From: a virus
Virus record (IMG/VR): IMGVR_UViG_3300032046_000015
Span: 1 to 64,000 of that record
Reading direction: 5' to 3' (one strand)
DNA: 64,000 bases
Numbering within the stretch: the first letter of the stretch is position 1; each line of letters starts with the position of its first letter. The notes beneath the pieces are model-generated. The model ran no database searches. It saw nothing but the letters and a program-made list of their open reading frames with translations, and was not told the origin of the DNA. Positions 17,927 to 28,312 of the stretch are shown here, piece by piece. The translations under genes and the position numbers were made by a program.

Positions 17927-19120
17927 TTATGCCAGACCGATGTTGACTATCTTGACAACGGCATCAACTTCTTCAATCTGCGTATCCGCTTTCACGGTGA
18001 TCGCATACTGATTGACGCCTTTGAAGATGTCTCTGTCCTTCTCAATCCTGATGTCTCTGCCTATGGCAAGGATCAGGTTTTGGAAGTGTGTCAAGAGCAC
18101 CTGTGGATGCGCCTGGTATGTGACTTTGACATTCACAGGATCAGGCAGACTGCCGGTGCCGATGCGAACGATTGTGCCATTCACATAGTCCATGGTGTAG
18201 TCCACGCCCTGGACGTATGGAGTGATGGGAGCATTGCCCAATGTTTGGAGTGCCACGATTTCACTGGCGCTGATGATCGGCTTGTAGGCCAGCGATGCCA
18301 CAGTGAGGCCAGTCAGCGTGATGTGTTCCACTATCTTCTGTGTCGCTCCCACAAGCGGAACTGGTACCAGTTCAATGCCGAATGGGGTGAGGTTCTGAGT
18401 TGTGGTCAACGCAGCATCACCACCCGCTGTGGCACGTGTGGATACCTTGTTCCTGAAGTTTTGCTCGATGTCGCTGTTGGACAGGAATCTCAACATTGTC
18501 CTGTCTCTCTTGAATTTGTCGGGCATCTTCTTGATGGCTTCACTGAAGATGGCACTCTCAATGTCGGTTCCAGCCGCATCGTACACATGGCCGCCATCAG
18601 CCAGTTTCCACCAACCGGAACACAGCGACAGATAACTGTCCTTGACGACCTTCACTGGATCACCGTCCACGTACAGATCAGCTTCAACCGCTGCTGGGCC
18701 AAGCAGATTGCCGTTGATGTACAAGTCTTCCAGATCATTGGCCAACTGTGTGGCCATCATCTTCACGATGGTATCCTGGACAGCATCCCCTTCAATGTTG
18801 ATTTCACTGAAGGTGTCGCTGATCTCGAATGGCACCATGATCTCCACAGGCTTCATGGAGATTTTTGACGTGGTGACTCTGCGCCTGACGTTGGGGTCAG
18901 ATGCCTCTGCCTTTGGAACAGCGACACGCTTGCCCACGCCTATTTTGTCGATGGTGGCTTCTTCATTTCTGAACTTGACCACCCGCACGTTGTTTTTGAG
19001 CGATGTCACATCGATGACGTACTGGATGAACTTGTCGCTCTGCATGGGATTGAGTTTGCCGCCAGCAGCCAATTGATCCGCTGCGATGACTGCCTTCTCA
19101 ACCAATTCCTTGTTTGTCAT
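17927..19120 (-). CDS. major capsid protein (HK97 fold, XkdG/P2-like)
   Basis: GGKLNPMQSDKFI, NIEG, ANDLEDLYINGN and RDIRIEKDRDI motifs; follows the scaffold gene; C-ending codon bias typical of highly expressed genes. Confidence 0.92.
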   Translation of the reverse strand: MTNKELVEKAVIAADQLAAGGKLNPMQSDKFIQYVIDVTSLKNNVRVVKFRNEEATIDKIGVGKRVAVPKAEASDPNVRRRVTTSKISMKPVEIMVPFEISDTFSEINIEGDAVQDTIVKMMATQLANDLEDLYINGNLLGPAAVEADLYVDGDPVKVVKDSYLSLCSGWWKLADGGHVYDAAGTDIESAIFSEAIKKMPDKFKRDRTMLRFLSNSDIEQNFRNKVSTRATAGGDAALTTTQNLTPFGIELVPVPLVGATQKIVEHITLTGLTVASLAYKPIISASEIVALQTLGNAPITPYVQGVDYTMDYVNGTIVRIGTGSLPDPVNVKVTYQAHPQVLLTHFQNLILAIGRDIRIEKDRDIFKGVNQYAITVKADTQIEEVDAVVKIVNIGLA

Positions 19121-19159
19121 GATTCTGTGTCTCCTCTCTTGTGTTATTCTGGTTTGGGG

Positions 19160-19966
19160 TCAAACGACATTGCCCCAAAAACCTTTGTCACCTTTTTTGA
19201 CTTCTGTGGTTTGTCCATCCTGCCCTGGCTGTTTGCTCACTGCTACTGCACCCTCAATGGTTTCCAAACGTTTTACAACGTCTGAAATCTGAGTGCTGAA
19301 TTCACCGATTGCTTTTGCCAAGTCAGGTGACGTTGTGTCGGCCTTGGCAGTCGGTTGAGCCACAGGTGGCTGTGTTGCGACTGGTGCCGATGCGACTGGT
19401 GCCGATGCCGTTGGCAACGCATTGACATCCACTCCCAGATCATCCAGGATAGCCTTGAGGCTTTGGTATGCCGTCATGATCTTTTCCATGCGATGCTGGC
19501 TGATCTTGGCTCCAGCCTTCTCCACTGATTCTGTCGCCTTGGCTGCTGGTGCCGGATAACCTGCCCCCAGTTTGCCCATCGCTGCTTCCAGCTTTGACAT
19601 CAGACCTTCAAGCAACGGTTTCATGGCGCCAAGGGCATCCATTAACGGCTTGACATCTGCATATCCAGCCTTGGAAGCATCGGTTGGGACAGCATCAGGT
19701 GAAGTGGCCGCTGGCGCTGGTTGATCATCTGTCTTATGGACAGGTGCCGTGGGCTCACTGGTTGCTTCAGGCACAGGCTCATCGCCTGTTGTCTGTTTCA
19801 CCCGTTCAACTTCCATACTTTTGTCTCCTCTCTTTGATTGTTTTACCACCAAGAATTTATGGCGATTAGCAGCCCTGTCAACAAGGCTGACTTCATCCAC
19901 TGCTATATCCAACAACCTTGCTGGGCCTGTTGGTTGATTATCCTCTTTGGTTTTATCCTTGCTCAT
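19160..19966 (-). CDS. capsid scaffolding protein with N-terminal protease-type EVSLVDRAAN motif
   Basis: Pro/Ala-rich low-complexity body, C-terminal FWGNVV, directly upstream of the major capsid gene. Confidence 0.75.
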   Translation of the reverse strand: MSKDKTKEDNQPTGPARLLDIAVDEVSLVDRAANRHKFLVVKQSKRGDKSMEVERVKQTTGDEPVPEATSEPTAPVHKTDDQPAPAATSPDAVPTDASKAGYADVKPLMDALGAMKPLLEGLMSKLEAAMGKLGAGYPAPAAKATESVEKAGAKISQHRMEKIMTAYQSLKAILDDLGVDVNALPTASAPVASAPVATQPPVAQPTAKADTTSPDLAKAIGEFSTQISDVVKRLETIEGAVAVSKQPGQDGQTTEVKKGDKGFWGNVV

Positions 19967-22900
19967 GCCACACTCCTCTCTGGGCCAAGCCTTCTTGCCA
20001 CTGCCATACCTTTAATGCTGAAGCCAGTCAGTTGATTATTTTCAACTTGTTTCCAAGTCTCATTGTCTGTAACATGAACTGTCATGATCCATGTGCCTGG
20101 CTTGACTTGCTGATCACCAATCATCATGGTGATCGGTGCTATCCAACTTTCAACCACCTCAATTGGGCGTGAGTAATCTTCATGCATTACACCAGTCTTT
20201 GAACCCTTATTGTATTCAGCCAAGAAATCATGGGCAGCTTTTTCAATAACTGGTGCATCATAAATTTGATCTTGCGCATCGAATGTTTCAGGTTCCAACA
20301 CAATGCCTGTCACCAATCGTTTGACTGTGTCTATCTTGATGATAGTGGTGTTGTAAGCCTTTTGTGTAGGTGCTGTAGCAGGTGGTTTGGCTGTCTCAGG
20401 ATTGTTTGGAAATTCCTGATCGGCTGGTCTGGCAATCATCCATTCTCTCCTGCCTGGCCCAACAGGTACAAATTGAAATATCCAACGTCCTTTAAGTAAT
20501 TTGCCGTCAAACCAAAACTCTTTATAATGTGGATCTTGTGTGCCTGCCTTCCACTTGATCTTATCTATGATGGTAAGTCTTGACCAAGCATTAGTAGTGG
20601 AACCAACAGCACCTGGTGGAAAAGATTGAGGCTTGTTGGCCCCAACATTCATCCATGAGAGTGGGCCTTGTATTACTTGACCCGATGCTGCTCCACCTTC
20701 ATCTGATCTGGCTGTCTTGAAATTAGCCAGTATCTTGTGTGTTGGATCAAGTTCAATAAATTTGTTAATTTGGAATTGATTGCCTGGCGTGAATCCCTCT
20801 CCACCTTCCCAGTATGGCGCTGTGCCTGGCCGCATCCGTATGTCTGTATGAATGGAAACTGGTTCAACCAAAGCAAGTAATTTCAACTGATCTTTGTTCA
20901 ACGTGGTTTTGTCTATACCCTTAATCAAGGATGATAGCTGACTACTATCCCCATCGGCTGCGTTGGCAATGGCAGCTGTCCAGTTTCCTTTGGCAATCTG
21001 ATCCAGTTTAGTTATCTGTACTGGTGTCAGTTTAATAGGATCAACGCCAAAATGAAAAGTGCCACCCAACAGTTTCACTTGATCCTCTGTCAAACCACGT
21101 TCATGCGTCTGTAGGATTGCTGTGCCAGAGTCACCAGCCTTGAAATCCAATTGCCCTTCTGTCTGTTTCCTTATGGCCAATCTCTTTTCCACCTTGAAGC
21201 CAGATTCCAAAAGTGCTGCTCTGGTCTCAGGATCAGCTTGTAACACATTTCCTTCATCCGCACGCTGTACAATACTCTTGATGTTCTCTGCCTTGGTTGA
21301 TCCCACTTCCCTGTCCCTGACCTTGGGAACCACTGCTGTTATCTTCCACACATCGGCAACATTATCATATTCTGGAATAATCTCTTCAACTCCCAAAGTG
21401 ATAATGCTTCCATCTGGTGCGTCCAGATTAGTGTTGAATGTTTTGCCCAACGTAACAAGCTTGCCCTTATCATCCTCATAGGCAACTGTGTAATTCCATG
21501 TGCGGGGTGAACCTGATACTGTCTGCCTGCTTAACACTTGTACTTTTATCTCAACCAGATTCTTAATCTTTGACCACGCAGGAGTCTGTCCAGTTAGTGG
21601 ATAATCTGAATTCACTGCTTTGGCAACAGCCCCTTCTGAACCTGGTTGCTTAGAAACATCTGAGATTATTTTCAACAAAGCAGCTTTGTTATCAACAACA
21701 TGCTTTGGTGTTATTTTCATGAACTTGAAATCATACTTACCAAACAAATCCTCCAATATGCCACGTCTTTCTGTCCAAGGTTTGCTGTGTAAATCCTGTC
21801 CATCATAATACAATACATCGAACACATGTGCTATTATTGAAGCCTTGGAACCATCAGCCAGAGTCAATTGACCCGACACAGGCACAACTTGGTTACCTGC
21901 CCAAGCAGCCAAATCCTTCCTGGCGACTGGTCTTCCATTATCGTGAACTGCTCCAAGATCAGCATCCAAAATAACTCCTTGACCTATGGCCTTGAGATCA
22001 TCTACAAGAGATGGAAATTGCTTGGAACGATCATCCTTGGAATCTTCAAAGAAAATTAATGTCTTGTCTGCACTGTCTGCTTCCAACACAGTGCGCCAAC
22101 CGTTATATTTTTGCTCAACATCAATTCCTATCTTTTCTTTCAACAGTGCTTCAGCCCAACCAGTGTTAAACTCCTCTGGCGTGAAATACTCTTGCTGTGA
22201 ATATCCGCCAGCAGTCTTCAATGGTATGAAACGTTGTAATGGTTTCAATGTGTCCGCTTTTGACACATTGATCCTCTTGGCCTCAGGTCTCAGAACAGCC
22301 ACCAAATCATACAGAGGAATATGGTCATCATGTGGCCCAGATGCGTGGTACACATAATGAACAAGATGTCTCATACCTTCTGGGATTTGGTTTCGCACTT
22401 TCACTTCCAATGCCGAATCAGGATTGTCCTGCCTGATGAGCATGTCTATGTCATGAGGTTCTTGCTGCTTAATGGAACCACCAACCAAATTGATATAACC
22501 TGGACACAACACCATGTCGCCCAAACCGTTGAAAATCTGCGCTGGTGCTTCTGCTGTTTTATCAAACACCACAACAGCATTGTTATCCTCTGTTCTGAAT
22601 ATATACTTAGCAACTTCATATCCTGCCATACAACTACGCAAATCATCCATACTCTTGAATTCACGTTTATGTGTAAGATCAAGCCTTTTACCCAGTGGCA
22701 CCAAGTGGATGGCTCGCATCCTGGCAATGCGCAGACTTTCATCTATGGCCGCATTTGGATCAGATAGATGTTCCAGAGTGTGCATGCTTAGCACAGTGTC
22801 AAATGCCCCATCAGGATATGACAGCTTGTTGACATCCTCTTTTTTCACTTTGTGATTGTGTTGCCCGCACAGCTTCATAGCTGTTATGGAATTGTCCACG

Positions 22901-23319
22901 CCTTCCACATTGAACCCTGACTTGGATAGAACATCCAATTCACGTCCTGCTCCGCATCCCATCACTAACACATCCTGTCCTTGGATGTATGGACTGATGG
23001 CCGCAAAATCTCTTATGAATAAATCTGTAACATCAATCAGCCCAGGGCTGAAATAGTTTTCACCATACTCTTCATCTGTTGGCATTGATGTTGCCTTCCC
23101 AAGTTGCGTGTAGTTCAGACCACGCTTTATCATCTCATCTCTCAATATATTAAACTTGTTCAGAAGTGTAGCCACAGTCAATCCATCGGTGGACTTACCA
23201 TCGCCAGCCCCTCCTTCAGTTAACAGTGCATACAACTGGTGACAGCGCCAATGTAAGTTCAACAACTCCTGGTTGTCCACCGCTGCTAGACTGTCTTTTG
23301 TGATATCGTTTATTTTCAT
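19963..23319 (-). CDS. multidomain protein: SAM methyltransferase + Pol-beta-type nucleotidyltransferase + ATP-dependent DNA ligase + LigD phosphoesterase-like domain + XkdF-type prohead protease
   Basis: VMGCGAG/HTLEHL (MTase); LVGGS..HDIDML (NTase); EQKYNGWR, LDADL, FDVLYYDG, EGAVAK, WSKIK (ligase); SIHTDIRM..KGRWIF (PE-like); VTGIVLEPETFDAQ, VMH, VVESWIAP, PGTWI, TGFSIKG (protease). Confidence 0.85.
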   Translation of the reverse strand: MKINDITKDSLAAVDNQELLNLHWRCHQLYALLTEGGAGDGKSTDGLTVATLLNKFNILRDEMIKRGLNYTQLGKATSMPTDEEYGENYFSPGLIDVTDLFIRDFAAISPYIQGQDVLVMGCGAGRELDVLSKSGFNVEGVDNSITAMKLCGQHNHKVKKEDVNKLSYPDGAFDTVLSMHTLEHLSDPNAAIDESLRIARMRAIHLVPLGKRLDLTHKREFKSMDDLRSCMAGYEVAKYIFRTEDNNAVVVFDKTAEAPAQIFNGLGDMVLCPGYINLVGGSIKQQEPHDIDMLIRQDNPDSALEVKVRNQIPEGMRHLVHYVYHASGPHDDHIPLYDLVAVLRPEAKRINVSKADTLKPLQRFIPLKTAGGYSQQEYFTPEEFNTGWAEALLKEKIGIDVEQKYNGWRTVLEADSADKTLIFFEDSKDDRSKQFPSLVDDLKAIGQGVILDADLGAVHDNGRPVARKDLAAWAGNQVVPVSGQLTLADGSKASIIAHVFDVLYYDGQDLHSKPWTERRGILEDLFGKYDFKFMKITPKHVVDNKAALLKIISDVSKQPGSEGAVAKAVNSDYPLTGQTPAWSKIKNLVEIKVQVLSRQTVSGSPRTWNYTVAYEDDKGKLVTLGKTFNTNLDAPDGSIITLGVEEIIPEYDNVADVWKITAVVPKVRDREVGSTKAENIKSIVQRADEGNVLQADPETRAALLESGFKVEKRLAIRKQTEGQLDFKAGDSGTAILQTHERGLTEDQVKLLGGTFHFGVDPIKLTPVQITKLDQIAKGNWTAAIANAADGDSSQLSSLIKGIDKTTLNKDQLKLLALVEPVSIHTDIRMRPGTAPYWEGGEGFTPGNQFQINKFIELDPTHKILANFKTARSDEGGAASGQVIQGPLSWMNVGANKPQSFPPGAVGSTTNAWSRLTIIDKIKWKAGTQDPHYKEFWFDGKLLKGRWIFQFVPVGPGRREWMIARPADQEFPNNPETAKPPATAPTQKAYNTTIIKIDTVKRLVTGIVLEPETFDAQDQIYDAPVIEKAAHDFLAEYNKGSKTGVMHEDYSRPIEVVESWIAPITMMIGDQQVKPGTWIMTVHVTDNETWKQVENNQLTGFSIKGMAVARRLGPERSVA

Positions 23320-23582
23320 ACCATTTCAATTGCTTGTGTTCTTGAGCCAGAAAAGTTCAGAAACAAAGCATGTAAAAATTCCTCACCATCATCCGGTGTG
23401 ACTAGCTTGTTGAATGAACCATCTTCATTGAAGACAGGCATTCCATTCTTGAACCTATCTTTGAGCATCTGATCATTGTAATCAGCAACCACCTTGTCTC
23501 CATCCAACTTGAAAGTTGCCAATACTTGATGGGTAGTTGGCATGTCGTTGAATATGACTTGTACTGCTTTCACGTTATCCAC
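23316..23582 (-). CDS. hypothetical protein
   Basis: 88-aa ORF overlapping both neighbours. Confidence 0.6.
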   Translation of the reverse strand: MDNVKAVQVIFNDMPTTHQVLATFKLDGDKVVADYNDQMLKDRFKNGMPVFNEDGSFNKLVTPDDGEEFLHALFLNFSGSRTQAIEMV

Positions 23583-24828
23583 CGTCCATAGGTTTCACAA
23601 CGGCTTGGGAATCTCCAAACTCATAGAATTTGGTTTCATTAGCAGAATAATCCATTGCACTTGATCTGGGTAAAAGCCTTGGATCAGCTTCCAGCAATCT
23701 TGTCTCAATCGGATTGGCCCTGGGCGGTGGTGGCGCTGCTGGGCCAGTTGTTGGCACCTGCCAAGTCTTGTTAGTAGTCACAACAATAGTACGACAATGG
23801 AAATGATAAGGTGGAAAAGCCAAACCACCTTCTGCCATGGCAGTCGCTGTTGCTGTGGATGGAAGTGCTCCAGCACTTATTCCAAACTTTTGAGAAGCAT
23901 CTCCTGCTGACATCCAACCTGCTGCTGCCTTCACTCCACCTGGCGTGACAGAGTTCAAAACCTTATCACGTTGTTCCAATCCCAGTGGCACGCTGAATTC
24001 CTTGCCATTCATCAATCGGCATATTTCACTTGTGCGTTCATCCAGCACAGCGTCAATCCGATAAACTTCAACCCCTGCCGTGGCAAACGTTTCAAGGTTT
24101 GCCCACGTGGTTGCCCGTGTCGCAGCGTTGGCAGTGAGACCTTCAAAATATAAGTCTGTTGGCCCTCTCCATCCTGGTGGCGGAACACCAACAGCTGCTG
24201 GCAGCGTGCCATTTCTTATTTGGTTGGCTAGATTATGTTGTAACTCTCTCGCAGCTTCTTCACGGCTGAGACCTTGAGTCAACATCGTGTTGTTAACGTC
24301 CTCATGCACTAGTGTTTGTAAATTGTCGCCATAGAAATTACCAATCCAGTGCATGTTATCTTTTCTCATCCAATCAATGGCTTCAGAATCAACCAGATTG
24401 AAATTGGGAGCAACTTTCAATTTATCGGAAAAACCAGCACGCTGAAGATTGTACATTAAGCCTGTGGCCTTTAACACTTCATTCCTGACCTTCTCAGGAT
24501 ATGTGTCCAGAGTTGTGTCGAATATGCGGTTGAACAGTTTGGCATCATTTTGTGTGAGTGGCCCTTTGCGTCCTTTCAATTCACCCAGAGCACGTTGAAC
24601 TGCTTGTTGGACTGTGATATCAAACTTACCATTCAATAATTTATTCAAACTTGTCTCAATGGTTCCGACATTGGGTGCTGCCATGATTACCACATCAGTA
24701 ATCAAGTCATCCAGCATATGGACAACATGCTTGGCTTGGTGCTTATCCTTGAAGTGGATACCACCGACAACCAGTGGTTGATCATTTTCCGTTATCACGC
24801 ACACGCTTGAACCATCTCCATTTGCCAT
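23575..24828 (-). CDS. MuF / SPP1 gp7-like minor head morphogenesis protein
   Basis: AVLDERTSEICRLMNGKEF and PPYHFHCRT motifs; downstream of the portal gene; start uncertain. Confidence 0.88.
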   Translation of the reverse strand: MANGDGSSVCVITENDQPLVVGGIHFKDKHQAKHVVHMLDDLITDVVIMAAPNVGTIETSLNKLLNGKFDITVQQAVQRALGELKGRKGPLTQNDAKLFNRIFDTTLDTYPEKVRNEVLKATGLMYNLQRAGFSDKLKVAPNFNLVDSEAIDWMRKDNMHWIGNFYGDNLQTLVHEDVNNTMLTQGLSREEAARELQHNLANQIRNGTLPAAVGVPPPGWRGPTDLYFEGLTANAATRATTWANLETFATAGVEVYRIDAVLDERTSEICRLMNGKEFSVPLGLEQRDKVLNSVTPGGVKAAAGWMSAGDASQKFGISAGALPSTATATAMAEGGLAFPPYHFHCRTIVVTTNKTWQVPTTGPAAPPPPRANPIETRLLEADPRLLPRSSAMDYSANETKFYEFGDSQAVVKPMDGG

Positions 24829-25003
24829 TGGACTTGGACTGTTCTTTTGTTGTGTTAGCTTCACAGCCTTCTTTGAAGCACGCAACTGGCTGTTTAACTA
24901 AACACTGATCTTTTGGAATGCCTATACTCGCACACAATTCATTGACTACCTGGCGTTGTGTGTTCACTAGACTTTCCAATTGATCGTGACCTTTTTTGCT
25001 CAC
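24782..25003 (-). CDS. small hypothetical protein
   Basis: GTGA overlap with the upstream gene. Confidence 0.4.
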   Translation of the reverse strand: MSKKGHDQLESLVNTQRQVVNELCASIGIPKDQCLVKQPVACFKEGCEANTTKEQSKSNGKWRWFKRVRDNGK

Positions 25004-25203
25004 GTCACGTTGCCTCTTTTTGTTTCGATGTAAGTCTTCAACGCCACCAACGCTGATGTGTTATTTGTTACAGTTTCAATGAGACATGAAAGCAAATTCT
25101 CTTCACGTCTGCTCTGCTCTCTATATTGAAGATACCAGAATATCAACACAACGCCAGCTGGCCCACTGTATTGAAGTATCAACTTGAGGTATTCCAATAT
25201 CAT
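25000..25203 (-). CDS. holin-like membrane protein (BhlA/UviB-like)
   Basis: 67 aa, one TM segment (GPAGVVLIFWYL) followed by a REENL coiled coil. Confidence 0.5.
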   Translation of the reverse strand: MILEYLKLILQYSGPAGVVLIFWYLQYREQSRREENLLSCLIETVTNNTSALVALKTYIETKRGNVT

Positions 25204-26900
25204 TTAATATCCTCTCCATCGATGATTGCTTGGGCAACCGCTGTGCGAAGTGCCATCAATGCTTGGACAACATCTCCACCATCGATGATTGCTTTTTGAA
25301 CTATTGATTTCATGGGTGCTATTGTGCCCATGTTAATTGGCCCAGTATTCTTGGCTGCTTCTGCCACTTGGATAGTGAATGGAACATCTGGATCAATCGC
25401 AGTCACTTTTCCAAGATTGGTACCAAAGATGTCTGACATGATATTCCTGGCAATCTGTGGCGTCAACCCGCCTGTACCTTCTGATGCTGCTAGCATCTTG
25501 GTCAGGCTTTCACTGTCTGTAACGTTTGGGCCATTGGAAATAAAACGGTGATACACGATGCCTAGCCTTGGCAGTATCTGGCTATTCATGAAAGCATCAA
25601 AAGCAGTGCGCTCAGGAGCAAACACCTGCTCATCAGCTAACTGTCGGCTGGCTTCTGCTGTTGCTCTGGAATAGTCTTCAGCCTTGCCAACAAATATCGG
25701 TGGCAGTCTAAAGGCACCACGCACCTTGTCACGATTGTTCGCATCATAAGATTGAAACATCGCATCTTTGATTTGTTGGTTAGTCAATGGCGTGATACTT
25801 ATCTTGATAGCATCCGACTGTCCAGGCATGGGCGCAACCTCAACTGGCTCAGCTTCCAGAATAAGGAATTTGCTATAATTGCTGCTGCCCTTAATATTGG
25901 ATTCAACAAACTGTTCGATGCGCTTGATCGTGCCAGTGGTCAACATACCACCACCGGACACAGTCACTACCATGGATGGCACGTTGTTGTTTTTTAACGT
26001 AGTGTAGTTGATCTCCTCTGCCGCACGACTGCCGAATATGCTGAACAGATTGCCAATAAACCTTGGCAACCCATATGGTGTTCTGGCCGATGGTATCCTG
26101 AAGTGATGCATGGAATTGGCTCTGTACTTGATCTCAATAGGATTGTTTGAATATTCACCCGTCTCACAGTTCAAATTTCTTGGATCACCCAGCTGCTTGA
26201 AATATACCTTCTGCCCCTCTCTGATCTGTATGAAACGTCTGAAGCGCACCATCCTCTTAACCTTCACCAAAACTGGCACGCCATTCTGATCCACTTCTAT
26301 CTGTGGCACTTCCACCATGACTGGAGTTGTGTCCAATGGTGTAAGTCTAACTGTCCAAGCTGGTGCCCACTCCAACCATCTGATCGCACCTTGAGTATCC
26401 TCAATAATTTCCCAGTATCCGTTGCCTGTGAGTTCCAAATCACGTCTGGTCAACCTGCGCAATGATATGAAATTACTGTTGAAGCAACAGTTGTTGAAAA
26501 AGTTGGCCAGCTTGATTCTTTCAACTTCCATTGTCTTTAGGATTTCAGGATTGGCCTCAATTGCTTGTGGCAGAGTAACAGGAACAATGCGATGGCCAAA
26601 ACCTTCTATGTTCACTTCCATGGCCTCAACTGTAGGTTGTAGCTCACTGTTATTCTCAATCAGCATTGACAATGGCAGTGGATCAAGTGGTGGCTCGACA
26701 ACAGTCTTGCTGTTTACCAAAGTTGCCCAAGGATCATCTTGAGATAGTTGCTTGCTGTAAGCAGATTCAGATTCAGCAACATCACCTATCTGTTTAGTGA
26801 TCCCAACAATCGTTGCCCTGACTGCTCTAGCATTTGGATTATCAACACCCGCTGTCACCACAGTTAGTCTGTTAACCTTTTGTCTTTGGACGTCACTCAT
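25200..26900 (-). CDS. portal protein (PBSX family)
   Basis: DLELTGNGYWEI, YGLPRF, AFRLPPIFVG and YSRATAE motifs; follows TerL. Confidence 0.93.
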   Translation of the reverse strand: MSDVQRQKVNRLTVVTAGVDNPNARAVRATIVGITKQIGDVAESESAYSKQLSQDDPWATLVNSKTVVEPPLDPLPLSMLIENNSELQPTVEAMEVNIEGFGHRIVPVTLPQAIEANPEILKTMEVERIKLANFFNNCCFNSNFISLRRLTRRDLELTGNGYWEIIEDTQGAIRWLEWAPAWTVRLTPLDTTPVMVEVPQIEVDQNGVPVLVKVKRMVRFRRFIQIREGQKVYFKQLGDPRNLNCETGEYSNNPIEIKYRANSMHHFRIPSARTPYGLPRFIGNLFSIFGSRAAEEINYTTLKNNNVPSMVVTVSGGGMLTTGTIKRIEQFVESNIKGSSNYSKFLILEAEPVEVAPMPGQSDAIKISITPLTNQQIKDAMFQSYDANNRDKVRGAFRLPPIFVGKAEDYSRATAEASRQLADEQVFAPERTAFDAFMNSQILPRLGIVYHRFISNGPNVTDSESLTKMLAASEGTGGLTPQIARNIMSDIFGTNLGKVTAIDPDVPFTIQVAEAAKNTGPINMGTIAPMKSIVQKAIIDGGDVVQALMALRTAVAQAIIDGEDIK

Positions 26901-28312
26901 TATAGCAACCCTGGTTCCTCTCTTGTTTTCCTTACACGCCTCAGTGTAGCCATGCTGATAGCAAAATCAAGAGCATCAATAATATCGTCATGTTCTCCAT
27001 TTGGGAATGATAACAGTTCATCTTCCAACTCCGGCATATCACGTCCCATCAGTATTTCACCATTCTCAAATTTCTGTGCTAGCTTTGTCATTCTGGTCAG
27101 CTTGTCCAATGATGTGAATATCGGATGGGCACGAACAAACTTGTATTGCGGCTGACTTTTCAATTCCTGATAAACTGCCTTCTGATATGCGTTGGATTCT
27201 ATCCCAGCCCTGATGGGCTCATATTGTTTGAACATTTTAACAATCAATTTTATCTGTTCAGGAAATGGGGTATGAACACGCTGATATTCTACAAGATAAA
27301 ACTTGTTTGCCAGCCTGTCATAAGCAATTGTGAATATAACAAAGAAGTCATGGAATAGTTGCTGACCGATAGCCAAGTCAACTCCTTGATAGTATTCCAG
27401 CCCCTTTGGCACCTCATCATAATATTGAAAGTGTTCATCGTTAAACACGTTGCCCATCATGGCTTGCGTGTCCAACATGTACTGGCAGTTAAACACAATG
27501 CTGCCACTTGCTCTGCGCTTGCCTTCAAACCAGACTGGTGGATGACGCTCTGGCCATGGGCTGCGTCCTTGTGAATCTAGTGCTGGAATGACAAGATGGT
27601 TCTTGGCAAACTCATTCTTGATCAAGTGGCCATATAGATCATGGTAATGATAACGTGTTCCAATGATCCATTCCTTGCCACCCTCTTCCAACGTTGGCTC
27701 CAACTCAGTGTAGTACCATTCCTTAACCTTCTCACGTTGACCGTATGTCCTGCTGTTTTCTATTGACACCAAGTCATCCGCTATTATCATGTCAAAGTGC
27801 CGACTGACTACACCACCATCTATGCCAACTGTGGTTATGTTGCTCTCCATGGCAGATGTGGTACGATTGGCAACATTGATTTCACGTGTGTCCCACTTGT
27901 CCCCTACTTGGTTGCCAAATATCTCTGTCAACTGTCTCTCTTGTAGCCTGTTCTTGATACCACGCAAAAAGGTTTCAGCCTGTGTACATGTCCTTGAACT
28001 CAGCAATATCCTGATGTTTGGATCCACCAAGACTTGCAACACAGACTGACCAATGGTTAATGGCTGAGTTTTTCCTGCTCCACGATATGCCAGGATAACT
28101 CCACGTGGATGATTGCGTTGAAACTCCATCATCTGGTGGTGGAACGGCTTGATGATTAGTGCTGGGCTATCAAACACAAACTTGCAAAGCACATCCAATC
28201 GCTTGTCTTCTAACACAGCCTGACGGATGTACTCATTGCGCATTTCACGCTTGTGCTGCCACTGTTGGACTAGTGTGTCCCGTTCTGGCGTTGATATTTG
28301 TAAGCCTGGCAC
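26900..28312 (-). CDS. terL: terminase large subunit
   Basis: Walker A YRGAGKT, Walker B IIADD, IGTRYH, GVDLA and FPNGEHDDIIDAL nuclease motifs. Confidence 0.95.
   Translation of the reverse strand: MPGLQISTPERDTLVQQWQHKREMRNEYIRQAVLEDKRLDVLCKFVFDSPALIIKPFHHQMMEFQRNHPRGVILAYRGAGKTQPLTIGQSVLQVLVDPNIRILLSSRTCTQAETFLRGIKNRLQERQLTEIFGNQVGDKWDTREINVANRTTSAMESNITTVGIDGGVVSRHFDMIIADDLVSIENSRTYGQREKVKEWYYTELEPTLEEGGKEWIIGTRYHYHDLYGHLIKNEFAKNHLVIPALDSQGRSPWPERHPPVWFEGKRRASGSIVFNCQYMLDTQAMMGNVFNDEHFQYYDEVPKGLEYYQGVDLAIGQQLFHDFFVIFTIAYDRLANKFYLVEYQRVHTPFPEQIKLIVKMFKQYEPIRAGIESNAYQKAVYQELKSQPQYKFVRAHPIFTSLDKLTRMTKLAQKFENGEILMGRDMPELEDELLSFPNGEHDDIIDALDFAISMATLRRVRKTREEPGLL

Follow-up and report, generated by a model that had tools for sequence, protein, structure and literature searches.

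A polyvalent phage head protein joining a predicted DNA ligase, a LigD-type phosphoesterase, and further enzymes to an XkdF-type prohead protease

The window analyzed here, i.e., the whole stretch of 64,000 nucleotides, is the first 64 kb of virus record IMGVR_UViG_3300032046_000015, an uncultured phage genome of 83,016 bp rated complete, for which the sequencing runs indicate sediment metagenomes as the origin. On its minus strand, at positions 19963–23319, the list of open reading frames (ORFs) and the gene context place a single ORF of 1118 amino acids (aa), designated P0001, between the genes of a MuF-like minor head protein and a scaffold, as proposed earlier from the sequence alone (hereafter the original prediction). 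P0001 is composed, in this order, of an N-terminal helical domain, a methyltransferase, a nucleotidyltransferase, a ligase and its putative OB-fold domain, a LigD-type 3′-phosphoesterase, and an XkdF-type protease, with the following predicted features:

19963–23319, minus strand: P0001, whole 1118-aa polyvalent head protein (ORF list, translation)
23107–23286, minus strand: N-terminal helical domain, aa 12–71 (own profile, found in 73 of 139 relatives)
22558–23076, minus strand: class I S-adenosylmethionine (SAM)-dependent methyltransferase, aa 82–254 (Pfam Methyltransf_11/23/25/12/31 and MetW)
22276–22536, minus strand: minimal Pol-beta-type nucleotidyltransferase-like domain, aa 262–348 (VGGS...DID...H321...GPH...D338; recognized via relatives)
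21550–22248, minus strand: ATP-dependent DNA ligase adenylation domain, aa 358–590 (Pfam PF01068)
21313–21549, minus strand: putative OB-fold domain of the ligase, aa 591–669 (alignments to archaeal DNA ligases extend to aa 626–628)
20425–21162, minus strand: LigD-type 3′-phosphoesterase domain, aa 720–965 (fold match; Q737-x-H739 and H824-x-D826-x-R828)
20866–21087, minus strand: helical insertion of ~75 residues, aa 745–818, between the two metal-binding histidines (helices at model residues 31–104)
19993–20364, minus strand: XkdF-type prohead serine protease core, aa 986–1109 (Pfam PF14550; phrog_3017 positions 41–154)

All five enzyme domains named in the original prediction (a SAM-dependent methyltransferase at about aa 76–254, a Pol-beta-type nucleotidyltransferase at about aa 265–345, an ATP-dependent ligase with Lys404 in motif I, a LigD phosphoesterase-like region, and a C-terminal XkdF-type protease) hold in domain parsing by hidden Markov models (HMMs) and structure, the nucleotidyltransferase transitively only. 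The same prediction had allowed for the fusion being a misassembly, and independent assemblies show instead that it is genuine: the P0001 frame is open and stop-free over 3.3 kb, homologues with 40–51% identity and the same domain order come from many (dozens of) independent contigs and different samples, and a separately built contig of 80,777 nt at depth 30, probably from the source sample, covers window positions 19100–24900 with zero differences, joints, or indels. Separately, short contigs of low depth with at least 99% identity to window positions 19100–24900 occur in two further sediment metagenome studies (runs X2 and X3), so that this phage or a near-identical relative is not limited to one sample.

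For the ligase, the Pfam model DNA_ligase_A_M matches aa 390–586 with 63 bits (cut-off 26.2), and the motifs expected of an ATP-dependent enzyme can be followed along the domain: motif I E402-x-K404-Y-N406-G-W-R409, motif III F424-E-D, motif IV E562-G-A-V-x-K567, and motif V W582-x-K584-x-K586. With the family profile, the closest PDB matches were archaeal ATP-dependent DNA ligases (3GDE, 2CFM, 4EQ5, and 3RR5, E 1e-13 to 1e-12). Motif residues are kept in 98–108 of 109 relatives (K404 in 108, E562 and K584 in 106 each), motif III being looser (E425 in 87 and D426 in 74 of the 109). The third residue of motif I is Asn in 59 of these relatives and Asp in 43, the protein of the archaeal virus ANMV-1 having Asp (KFDG), and this split suggests two sub-clades with potentially different chemistry at this position. 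The OB block is likewise conserved in the family and present in ANMV-1, while Pfam DNA_ligase_A_C gave no match to it. With its motifs intact and an unusual KxNG form of motif I, the ligase may be capable of self-adenylation and nick sealing.

The phosphoesterase was recognized through its fold. We aligned aa 715–975 with 11 homologues from related loci (alignment A2) and modeled the region with AlphaFold, which yielded a predicted local distance difference test score (pLDDT) of 84.9 and a predicted template modeling score (pTM) of 0.80. A Foldseek search with this model returned seven significant matches, all of them LigD 3′-phosphoesterase domains or their archaeal stand-alone relatives (3N9B, 3P4H, 3P43, 3N9D, 5DMP, and 2LJ6, E 3.6e-6 to 1e-3), the following match having E >0.1. 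Structural alignment with VIA-align gave Z scores of 13.8 for 3P43 (123 of 124 residues, root-mean-square deviation 2.4 Å), 13.3 for 3P4H, and 12.0 for 3N9B, with a LigD range of 13.8–9.6, versus 3.9 for the best unrelated chain. At the sequence level, the region had no Pfam match, LigD_N being absent at E up to 1, and the family profile searched against the PDB placed 3N9B and 2LJ6 on top with E 0.4 over 41 residues. All 39 relatives examined retain H824, D826, and R828, and both the Q737-x-H739 and the H824-x-D826-x-R828 patterns are invariant in alignments A1 and A2. By motif and strand order, this pattern corresponds to the CkoPE active site (Gln7, His9, His15, Asp17, and Arg19), in which two His and the Asp bind manganese and the Arg binds the scissile phosphate (PMC3082917). 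On the modeled fold, we assign aa 720–965 as a LigD-type 3′-phosphoesterase, a class whose solved members are DNA 3′-end healers (PMC3082917). Unlike solved LigD phosphoesterase domains, which comprise 117–151 residues and align over 117–125 residues within model residues 17–255, the P0001 model includes a helical insert of ~75 residues between the strands at model residues 17–29 and 108–117.

The methyltransferase domain is matched by Methyltransf_11 over aa 119–200 (55 bits, cut-off 21.2) and includes a glycine-rich SAM motif, VLVMGCGAGR; G121, G123, G125, E183, and H184 are kept in 37–40 of 40 relatives. Its nearest clusters in the ESM Atlas are stand-alone viral Methyltransf_11 proteins of a generic kind. 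The [DNS]PP[YFW] motif of DNA amino-methyltransferases does not occur in aa 76–254, and the MethyltransfD12 profile had no match in P0001, so by motif and profile this domain is a predicted generic class I enzyme and not of the Dam/D12 type. In most relatives, the N-terminal helical domain stands directly before the nucleotidyltransferase, and in P0001 the methyltransferase sits between the two. Weak matches of Pfam Pyr_excise (T4 DenV), under the cut-off, in the helical domain of two relatives raised the question of a DenV-type pyrimidine-dimer glycosylase (PF03013), which would have completed a base-excision kit. This reading was dropped, since hhalign was unsupportive: the helical domain aligned to T4 DenV with a probability of 0.8% and to an 18-sequence DenV alignment with 18.8% over 27 columns only, and the DenV catalytic segment with Glu23 was left unaligned in these comparisons.

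The nucleotidyltransferase is the weakest of the domain calls. Its signature residues and its homology through intermediates stand, and a direct match was found neither in Pfam at E up to 10 nor in PDB profile searches. Comparison with the ESM Atlas gave a score of 0.80, which is noise level, a word-index search for shorter proteins was fruitless, and an AlphaFold model from 11 sequences was poor (pLDDT 51). A profile of the domain (A4) searched against 1.84 billion representative proteins retrieved 641 clusters at E ≤ 0.001, counted at 50% identity, of which 295 had E ≤ 1e-10, and reached the 123-aa relative P0133 with E 2e-16. Residues 12–55 of P0133 match NTP_transf_2 (25.9 bits, cut-off 21) over the G[SG]...DxD segment, and its score with Pfam Polbeta (24.5 bits) falls just below the cut-off of 26.9 bits; two further relatives, P0121 and P0169, have weaker matches to NTP_transf_2/Polbeta over the same segment. 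Among 27 short relatives consisting of this domain only, 4 match NTP_transf_2 and one matches Polbeta. Conservation is high at the positions expected of the superfamily (G280 and D292 in 172 of 172 relatives, [S/G]281 and D290 in 169, D338 in 159). The G[SG]-to-DxD spacing in P0001 is 7 residues, shorter than the usual 9–13. We accept aa 262–348 as a probable minimal nucleotidyltransferase of the Pol-beta superfamily (PF01909/PF18765), which at ~90 residues is far too small for a templated polymerase.

The protease closes the chain. Peptidase_S78_2 (XkdF) matches aa 992–1107 with 93.2 bits (cut-off 24) over model positions 4–123 of 126, and with 99.3 bits in a scan of the genome. Among 81 relatives, the putative catalytic residues H1046 and S1101 are kept in 79 and 80, respectively, and D1014 in 80; in 80 relatives the domain stands at the extreme C-terminus, with a median of 5 residues after it. 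S78, ClpP, and S49 proteases were absent from the complete genome, and the XkdF match occurred only in P0001. If this phage has a maturation protease at all, P0001 would have to be it, being the only recognizable head protease of the genome. Across the domains of P0001, catalytic residues are near-invariant in 39–172 relatives, which argues for selection on catalysis rather than on mere bulk.

P0001 lies within a head-morphogenesis block encoded entirely on the minus strand, in the order large terminase, portal, MuF, an 88-aa ORF, P0001, scaffold, and major capsid protein:

26900–28312, minus strand: large terminase (Pfam Terminase_6C; portal/terminase PHROGs phrog_12 and phrog_38)
25200–26900, minus strand: portal (Pfam Phage_portal; portal/terminase PHROGs phrog_12 and phrog_38)
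23575–24885, minus strand: MuF-like minor head protein (Pfam Phage_Mu_F 23 bits, under the cut-off; several minor-head/head-morphogenesis PHROGs)
23316–23582, minus strand: 88-aa ORF between MuF and P0001, overlapping each by a few bases, with no family match
19160–19966, minus strand: scaffold-like gene P0042, 268 aa (its C-terminal region is matched by the scaffold portion of phrog_3017, a protease-scaffold family)
19817–19918, minus strand: scaffold N-terminal element RLLDIAVDEVSLVDRAANRHKFLVVK, P0042 aa 17–50 (matches phrog_3017 positions 4–37)
17927–19120, minus strand: major capsid protein (phrog_1623, E 2e-75)

In an arrangement of translational coupling, the ATG of the scaffold gene and the TGA of P0001 share bases (ATGA), and an AGGAG Shine-Dalgarno sequence lies ahead of this start codon. 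The scaffold protein starts with MSKDK and continues into RLLDIAVDEVSLVDRAANRHKFLVVK, a VSLVDxxAN-type element. In ordinary XkdF protease-scaffold proteins, this VS(L/Y)VDxxAN element and the protease core share one chain, with the element immediately preceding the core; in gp09 of Bacillus phage vB_BtS_B83, element, core, and scaffold form one chain of 398 residues. The element opens the gene downstream of the core in 8 distinct loci (L001, L002, L004–L007, L020, and L021). These alignments confirm, at the level of predicted domains, an XkdF protease divided over two coupled genes, with the core ending P0001 and the element opening the scaffold. The scaffold N-terminus may dock on the protease core and so draw the enzyme train into the procapsid.

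In the complete 83-kb genome, a scan for Ku found none, and the ligase domain of P0001 was the only ligase, ATP- or NAD-dependent, to be found. The two ends of the record (positions 1–127 and 82890–83016), listed as a "direct terminal repeat", overlap exactly over 127 nt; this overlap is most simply explained by an assembler k-mer on a circular assembly, as is typical, and carries no information on physical or cos ends or on circularization.

Next, we surveyed the cargo on homologous proteins, as the original prediction had suggested, by running our own block HMMs (from alignment A1) on the best 139 of the 641 nucleotidyltransferase clusters. The ligase was detected in 78 of these, the phosphoesterase in 69, the protease in 51, and the methyltransferase in 31. 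The commonest architectures were nucleotidyltransferase–ligase–phosphoesterase–protease (22), the same without protease (16), nucleotidyltransferase–phosphoesterase–protease (11), and nucleotidyltransferase–methyltransferase–ligase–phosphoesterase–protease (10). Other relatives carry extra domains, including Dam methylase, 2H phosphoesterase, metallo-beta-lactamase, ADP-ribosyltransferase, C5 methylase, and topoisomerase I, and relatives such as L004 have a separate true D12 (Dam) domain within the same chain. By sequence, we consider the nucleotidyltransferase–ligase–phosphoesterase cassette to be a widespread predicted module. Side features of individual members include an extra N-terminal extension of ~340 residues with no Pfam match in P0005 and P0008 (L005:8001-11339 and upstream; A1 columns 1–340), and, in P0007 (L015:4060-4394), an insert of ~110 residues with a Cys/His-rich stretch between nucleotidyltransferase and ligase, along with a 2H (LigT-like) domain.

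The cassette is also found on a second protease. In loci L009–L012 (e.g., L011:1808-6126), a nucleotidyltransferase–methyltransferase–ligase cassette stands behind an N-terminal Mu gpI-type protease (PF10123, 47–51 bits), followed downstream by genes for a scaffold, a cement protein, and a lambda-E-type capsid protein. The occurrence of the same cassette on two unrelated protease families indicates that the linkage to a head protease matters, most simply for capsid loading, and two proteases with one cargo are hard to explain except through shared residence in the procapsid. A shorter form also speaks for a link to the protease: in loci L006–L008, a 471-aa phosphoesterase–protease protein occupies the slot of P0001. 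Its neighbor, the MuF gene at L006:3554-7180, itself encodes 1208 aa with several domains, among them a weak kinase-like match to HipA_C, which suggests that the cargo is divided differently between MuF and protease in different phages.

What the sequences show are the domains of P0001, their conserved catalytic residues, the setting among head genes, and the repeated attachment of the cassette to proteases of two families; incorporation into the head, retention, injection, DNA as the substrate, and a role for each enzyme are proposed from there. We favor, with a confidence only somewhat above even, the most economical scenario, which is that of the original prediction: the enzymes are built into the head, released by proteolysis, kept inside, and carried along with the DNA, whose nicks or ends they would then clean and seal. 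The protease core would be drawn into the assembling procapsid, possibly with the involvement of the scaffold N-terminal element, and the enzymes would enter along with it. The protease would then cut scaffold and linkers, and the folded enzyme domains, too large to exit the shell, would be trapped and accompany the DNA into the next host. In that cell, blocked 3′ ends (3′-phosphate or ribonucleotide) would be cleared by the LigD-type manganese phosphoesterase, a nucleotide may be added by the nucleotidyltransferase, and nicks or ends of the incoming genome would be sealed by the ligase, maybe pre-adenylated, before phage gene expression. DNA is the likeliest substrate, given the pairing of ligases and phosphoesterases elsewhere in the repair of DNA ends, the placement of the P0001 ligase among DNA ligases with an OB domain, and the Dam domains of relatives. 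Of the original proposal of an enzyme cargo packaged for co-injection, the loading step has gained comparative support (the only head protease of the genome, the head block, the C-terminal protease, and the Mu gpI linkage), while retention and co-injection stay at the level of inference.

Several observations weigh against this scenario. Some concern the domains themselves: ligase motif I reads KYNG (22102–22110, aa 404–406) and not the canonical KxDG, the nucleotidyltransferase is identified through relatives only, and a conserved His ~32 residues past R828, the counterpart of the phosphate-binding CkoPE His51 near Tyr55, is not evident in the phosphoesterase (K868, near the expected position, is kept in 38 of 39 relatives). 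Others concern loading. The phosphoesterase of L009–L012 is a separate gene of 268–275 aa that overlaps the preceding one by 22–43 nt. A programmed −1 frameshift joining ligase and phosphoesterase in these loci was rejected, as there is no slippery heptamer (L011 included) and the phosphoesterase has its own ATG, directly preceded by a Shine-Dalgarno sequence in L009, L010, and L012; these are ordinary overlapping genes, and covalent loading is hence not universal. No cultured relative carrying the cargo was found in a collection of 50,697 phage records, where tblastn returned only the protease, or ligases such as those of ANMV-1 and SPbeta.

The remaining points are those on which the foremost alternative builds, namely that the enzymes act in the producing cell or the filling procapsid, healing and sealing replicated DNA before or during packaging, and are then discarded or degraded. 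Known prohead proteases largely self-destruct and leave the shell, as established for HK97 and T4, and the cargo might be degraded with them. ANMV-1 carries the nucleotidyltransferase–ligase–phosphoesterase module as an ordinary free-standing gene, so that the usefulness of the module does not need a capsid. P0001 includes the only ligase of the genome, placed with the late head genes, and could be a plain replication or late-repair ligase; nicked or branched DNA, moreover, packages poorly. This alternative leaves unexplained, however, why the cassette is attached to two protease families and why the protease is always terminal, and a free enzyme would be better suited to cytoplasmic repair, while ATP and SAM are not expected in a closed shell. 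Overall, we regard action in the producing cell as rather unlikely.

The swapping of domains in the family invites another explanation, in which the cargo serves counter-defense on host molecules: the nucleotidyltransferase and methyltransferase would modify host proteins, RNAs, or signaling nucleotides, and harm done by nucleases of the host (restriction, CRISPR, nickases) would be reversed, as it arises, by the ligase and phosphoesterase. Next to the same nucleotidyltransferase, relatives carry interchangeable domains (ADP-ribosyltransferase, metallo-beta-lactamase fold, 2H, Dam, C5-methylase, and topoisomerase I), and such swapping is typical of conflict proteins according to the available text of Iyer et al. 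2017 (J Bacteriol, PMC5512222), in which minimal Pol-beta nucleotidyltransferases of polyvalent proteins and toxin–antitoxin systems are predicted to modify proteins. Yet the nucleotidyltransferase–ligase–OB–phosphoesterase block is far more constant than usual conflict effectors, is also found in an archaeal virus outside the head module, and has no nameable target among host molecules, and we consider counter-defense improbable.

More improbable still is an RNA repair kit like Pnkp/Hen1 or T4 Pnkp/Rnl1, in which cleaved tRNAs would have their 2′,3′-cyclic or 3′-phosphate ends healed by the phosphoesterase and their 2′-OH marked by the methyltransferase before the ligase reseals the RNA. The combination of an end-healing enzyme, a methyltransferase, and a ligase does resemble the Pnkp/Hen1 set, 2H phosphoesterase domains occur in some relatives, and the KANG motif of the tRNA ligase Trl1 resembles the Asn in motif I of P0001. 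By Pfam, however, P0001 includes no 5′-kinase or P-loop family; its ligase belongs to the DNA ligase family, has a predicted OB domain, and is closest to archaeal DNA ligases, with no match to an RNA ligase family; no Hen1 is among the PDB sequence matches listed (57; best 60 of 160); and the methylases co-fused in relatives are Dam DNA methylases. Finally, an artefact through misassembly or read-through of separate genes has practically no chance, as the recurrence of the domain order in independent contigs, the open frame, and the depth-30 contig all speak against it and nothing speaks for it.

Extending the favored scenario of capsid loading and co-delivery beyond this phage, it seems possible, if short of an even chance, that a virion-borne DNA first-aid kit, loaded by fusion to the head protease, is found in numerous uncultured tailed phages and in some viruses of archaea. 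This kit would combine 3′-end cleaning, the addition of a single nucleotide, and ligation, joined in P0001 by a methyltransferase, and would mend the genome at entry. The damage may be environmental or made by host nucleases, its repair would need neither phage expression nor host repair, and the scaffold element would be the docking device. If the enzymes of P0001 do travel in the capsid, this would be, to our knowledge, the first virus to deliver its own DNA ligase and end-healing enzymes with the genome, a new answer to surviving environmental DNA damage and, just after entry (the first seconds of infection), the nucleases of the host. The family concerned is large (641 clusters, the majority of the best 139 having ligase, phosphoesterase, or protease), without any cultured member, and undescribed in the literature searched. 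It offers new enzymes, namely a clade of ligases with KxNG in motif I and a phosphoesterase of the LigD type enlarged by a long helical insert, and the protease fusion of P0001 may provide a natural means of targeting foreign proteins to the capsid interior.

Among known systems, a close match in the order of the enzyme block is a protein annotated as "ATP-dependent DNA ligase" in archaeal virus ANMV-1 (AJP62006.1, 866 aa; L027:2848-5445, KP703175), which has the same succession of nucleotidyltransferase-like, ligase, OB, and phosphoesterase-like domains. BLASTP aligned it to P0001 with 26% identity over 403 residues (E 2e-27), with a second match in the phosphoesterase, and all four of our own domain HMMs match it. 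Unlike P0001, the ANMV-1 protein includes neither protease nor methyltransferase, and its gene adjoins that of a MutT-like hydrolase, outside the head module.

Bacterial LigD and archaeal non-homologous end-joining systems resemble P0001 in combining an ATP-dependent ligase with a phosphoesterase whose rare fold, an eight-stranded beta-barrel, is shared (Z 9.6–13.8), and LigD also shares the Q-x-H ... H-x-D-x-R metal/phosphate site and has a nucleotide-adding domain in the same chain. In LigD, however, that domain is an archaeo-eukaryotic primase (AEP)-type primase-polymerase and the partner is Ku, whereas P0001 has a ~90-residue Pol-beta-type domain in a genome without Ku, and no AEP or LigD polymerase Pfam match was found in P0001. 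Further differences are the undetected LigD_N, the helical insert, the phosphate-binding His that is not evident, the KxNG motif, and the fusion to a capsid protease. P0001 is not a LigD, because it has no primase-polymerase and no Ku partner and because the LigD_N model is blind to its phosphoesterase; of the LigD end-joining toolkit to which its activities had been likened, the ligase and phosphoesterase are present and the Ku and LigD-type polymerase are not, leaving an analogy only.

As a head protease, P0001 compares with B83 gp09, in that both have a core with the conserved His and Ser, lie between the MuF and major capsid genes, and are followed by a scaffold part after the core; in B83 all of this is one chain, whereas in P0001 the core ends an enzyme train of 1118 residues and the element and scaffold form the next gene. 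Fusions of Dam to XkdF (phrog_1530; Lactococcus ul36-like and Rhizobium phages) represent a simpler relative of this design. As candidate injected enzymes, the cargo of P0001 would join T4 Alt and internal proteins, the P1 DarB methylase-helicase, the N4 virion RNA polymerase, and MuF-fused toxins, which are head-borne, injected, and act before phage expression (PMC5512222, available text). None of these is a ligase or 3′-end healer, unlike the P0001 cargo, and T4 internal proteins reach the capsid through a short targeting peptide cut off by the protease, where P0001 has a fusion to the protease itself.

The broadest likeness is to the polyvalent proteins defined by Iyer et al. 2017, predicted there to be packaged in the head and delivered with DNA. 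In the available text, polyvalent proteins, like P0001, carry many enzymatic domains in one polypeptide, are encoded beside portal, MuF, and terminase genes, and have the assemblin-like (prohead) peptidase always at the C-terminus (PMC5512222). With five catalytic domains and two further blocks, a head and packaging gene setting, and a C-terminal peptidase, P0001 is predicted to be a polyvalent protein by every feature of the class that can be computed. The same text, as far as available, leaves DNA ligase and LigD unmentioned, its only phosphoesterase section concerning 2H domains that, as it states, were never observed with RNA ligases, and describes Pol-beta nucleotidyltransferases in conjugative elements of firmicutes, fused to ArdC-N; the constant nucleotidyltransferase–ligase–OB–phosphoesterase block, the attachment to Mu gpI, and a protease element on the scaffold are absent from it. 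In the literature searched, head proteases bearing a ligase or a phosphoesterase of the LigD type are not described. The general idea of polyvalent proteins with a terminal head protease dates from 2017, the ligase and phosphoesterase cargo is not mentioned there, and P0001 provides a concrete, testable case for the 2017 prediction.

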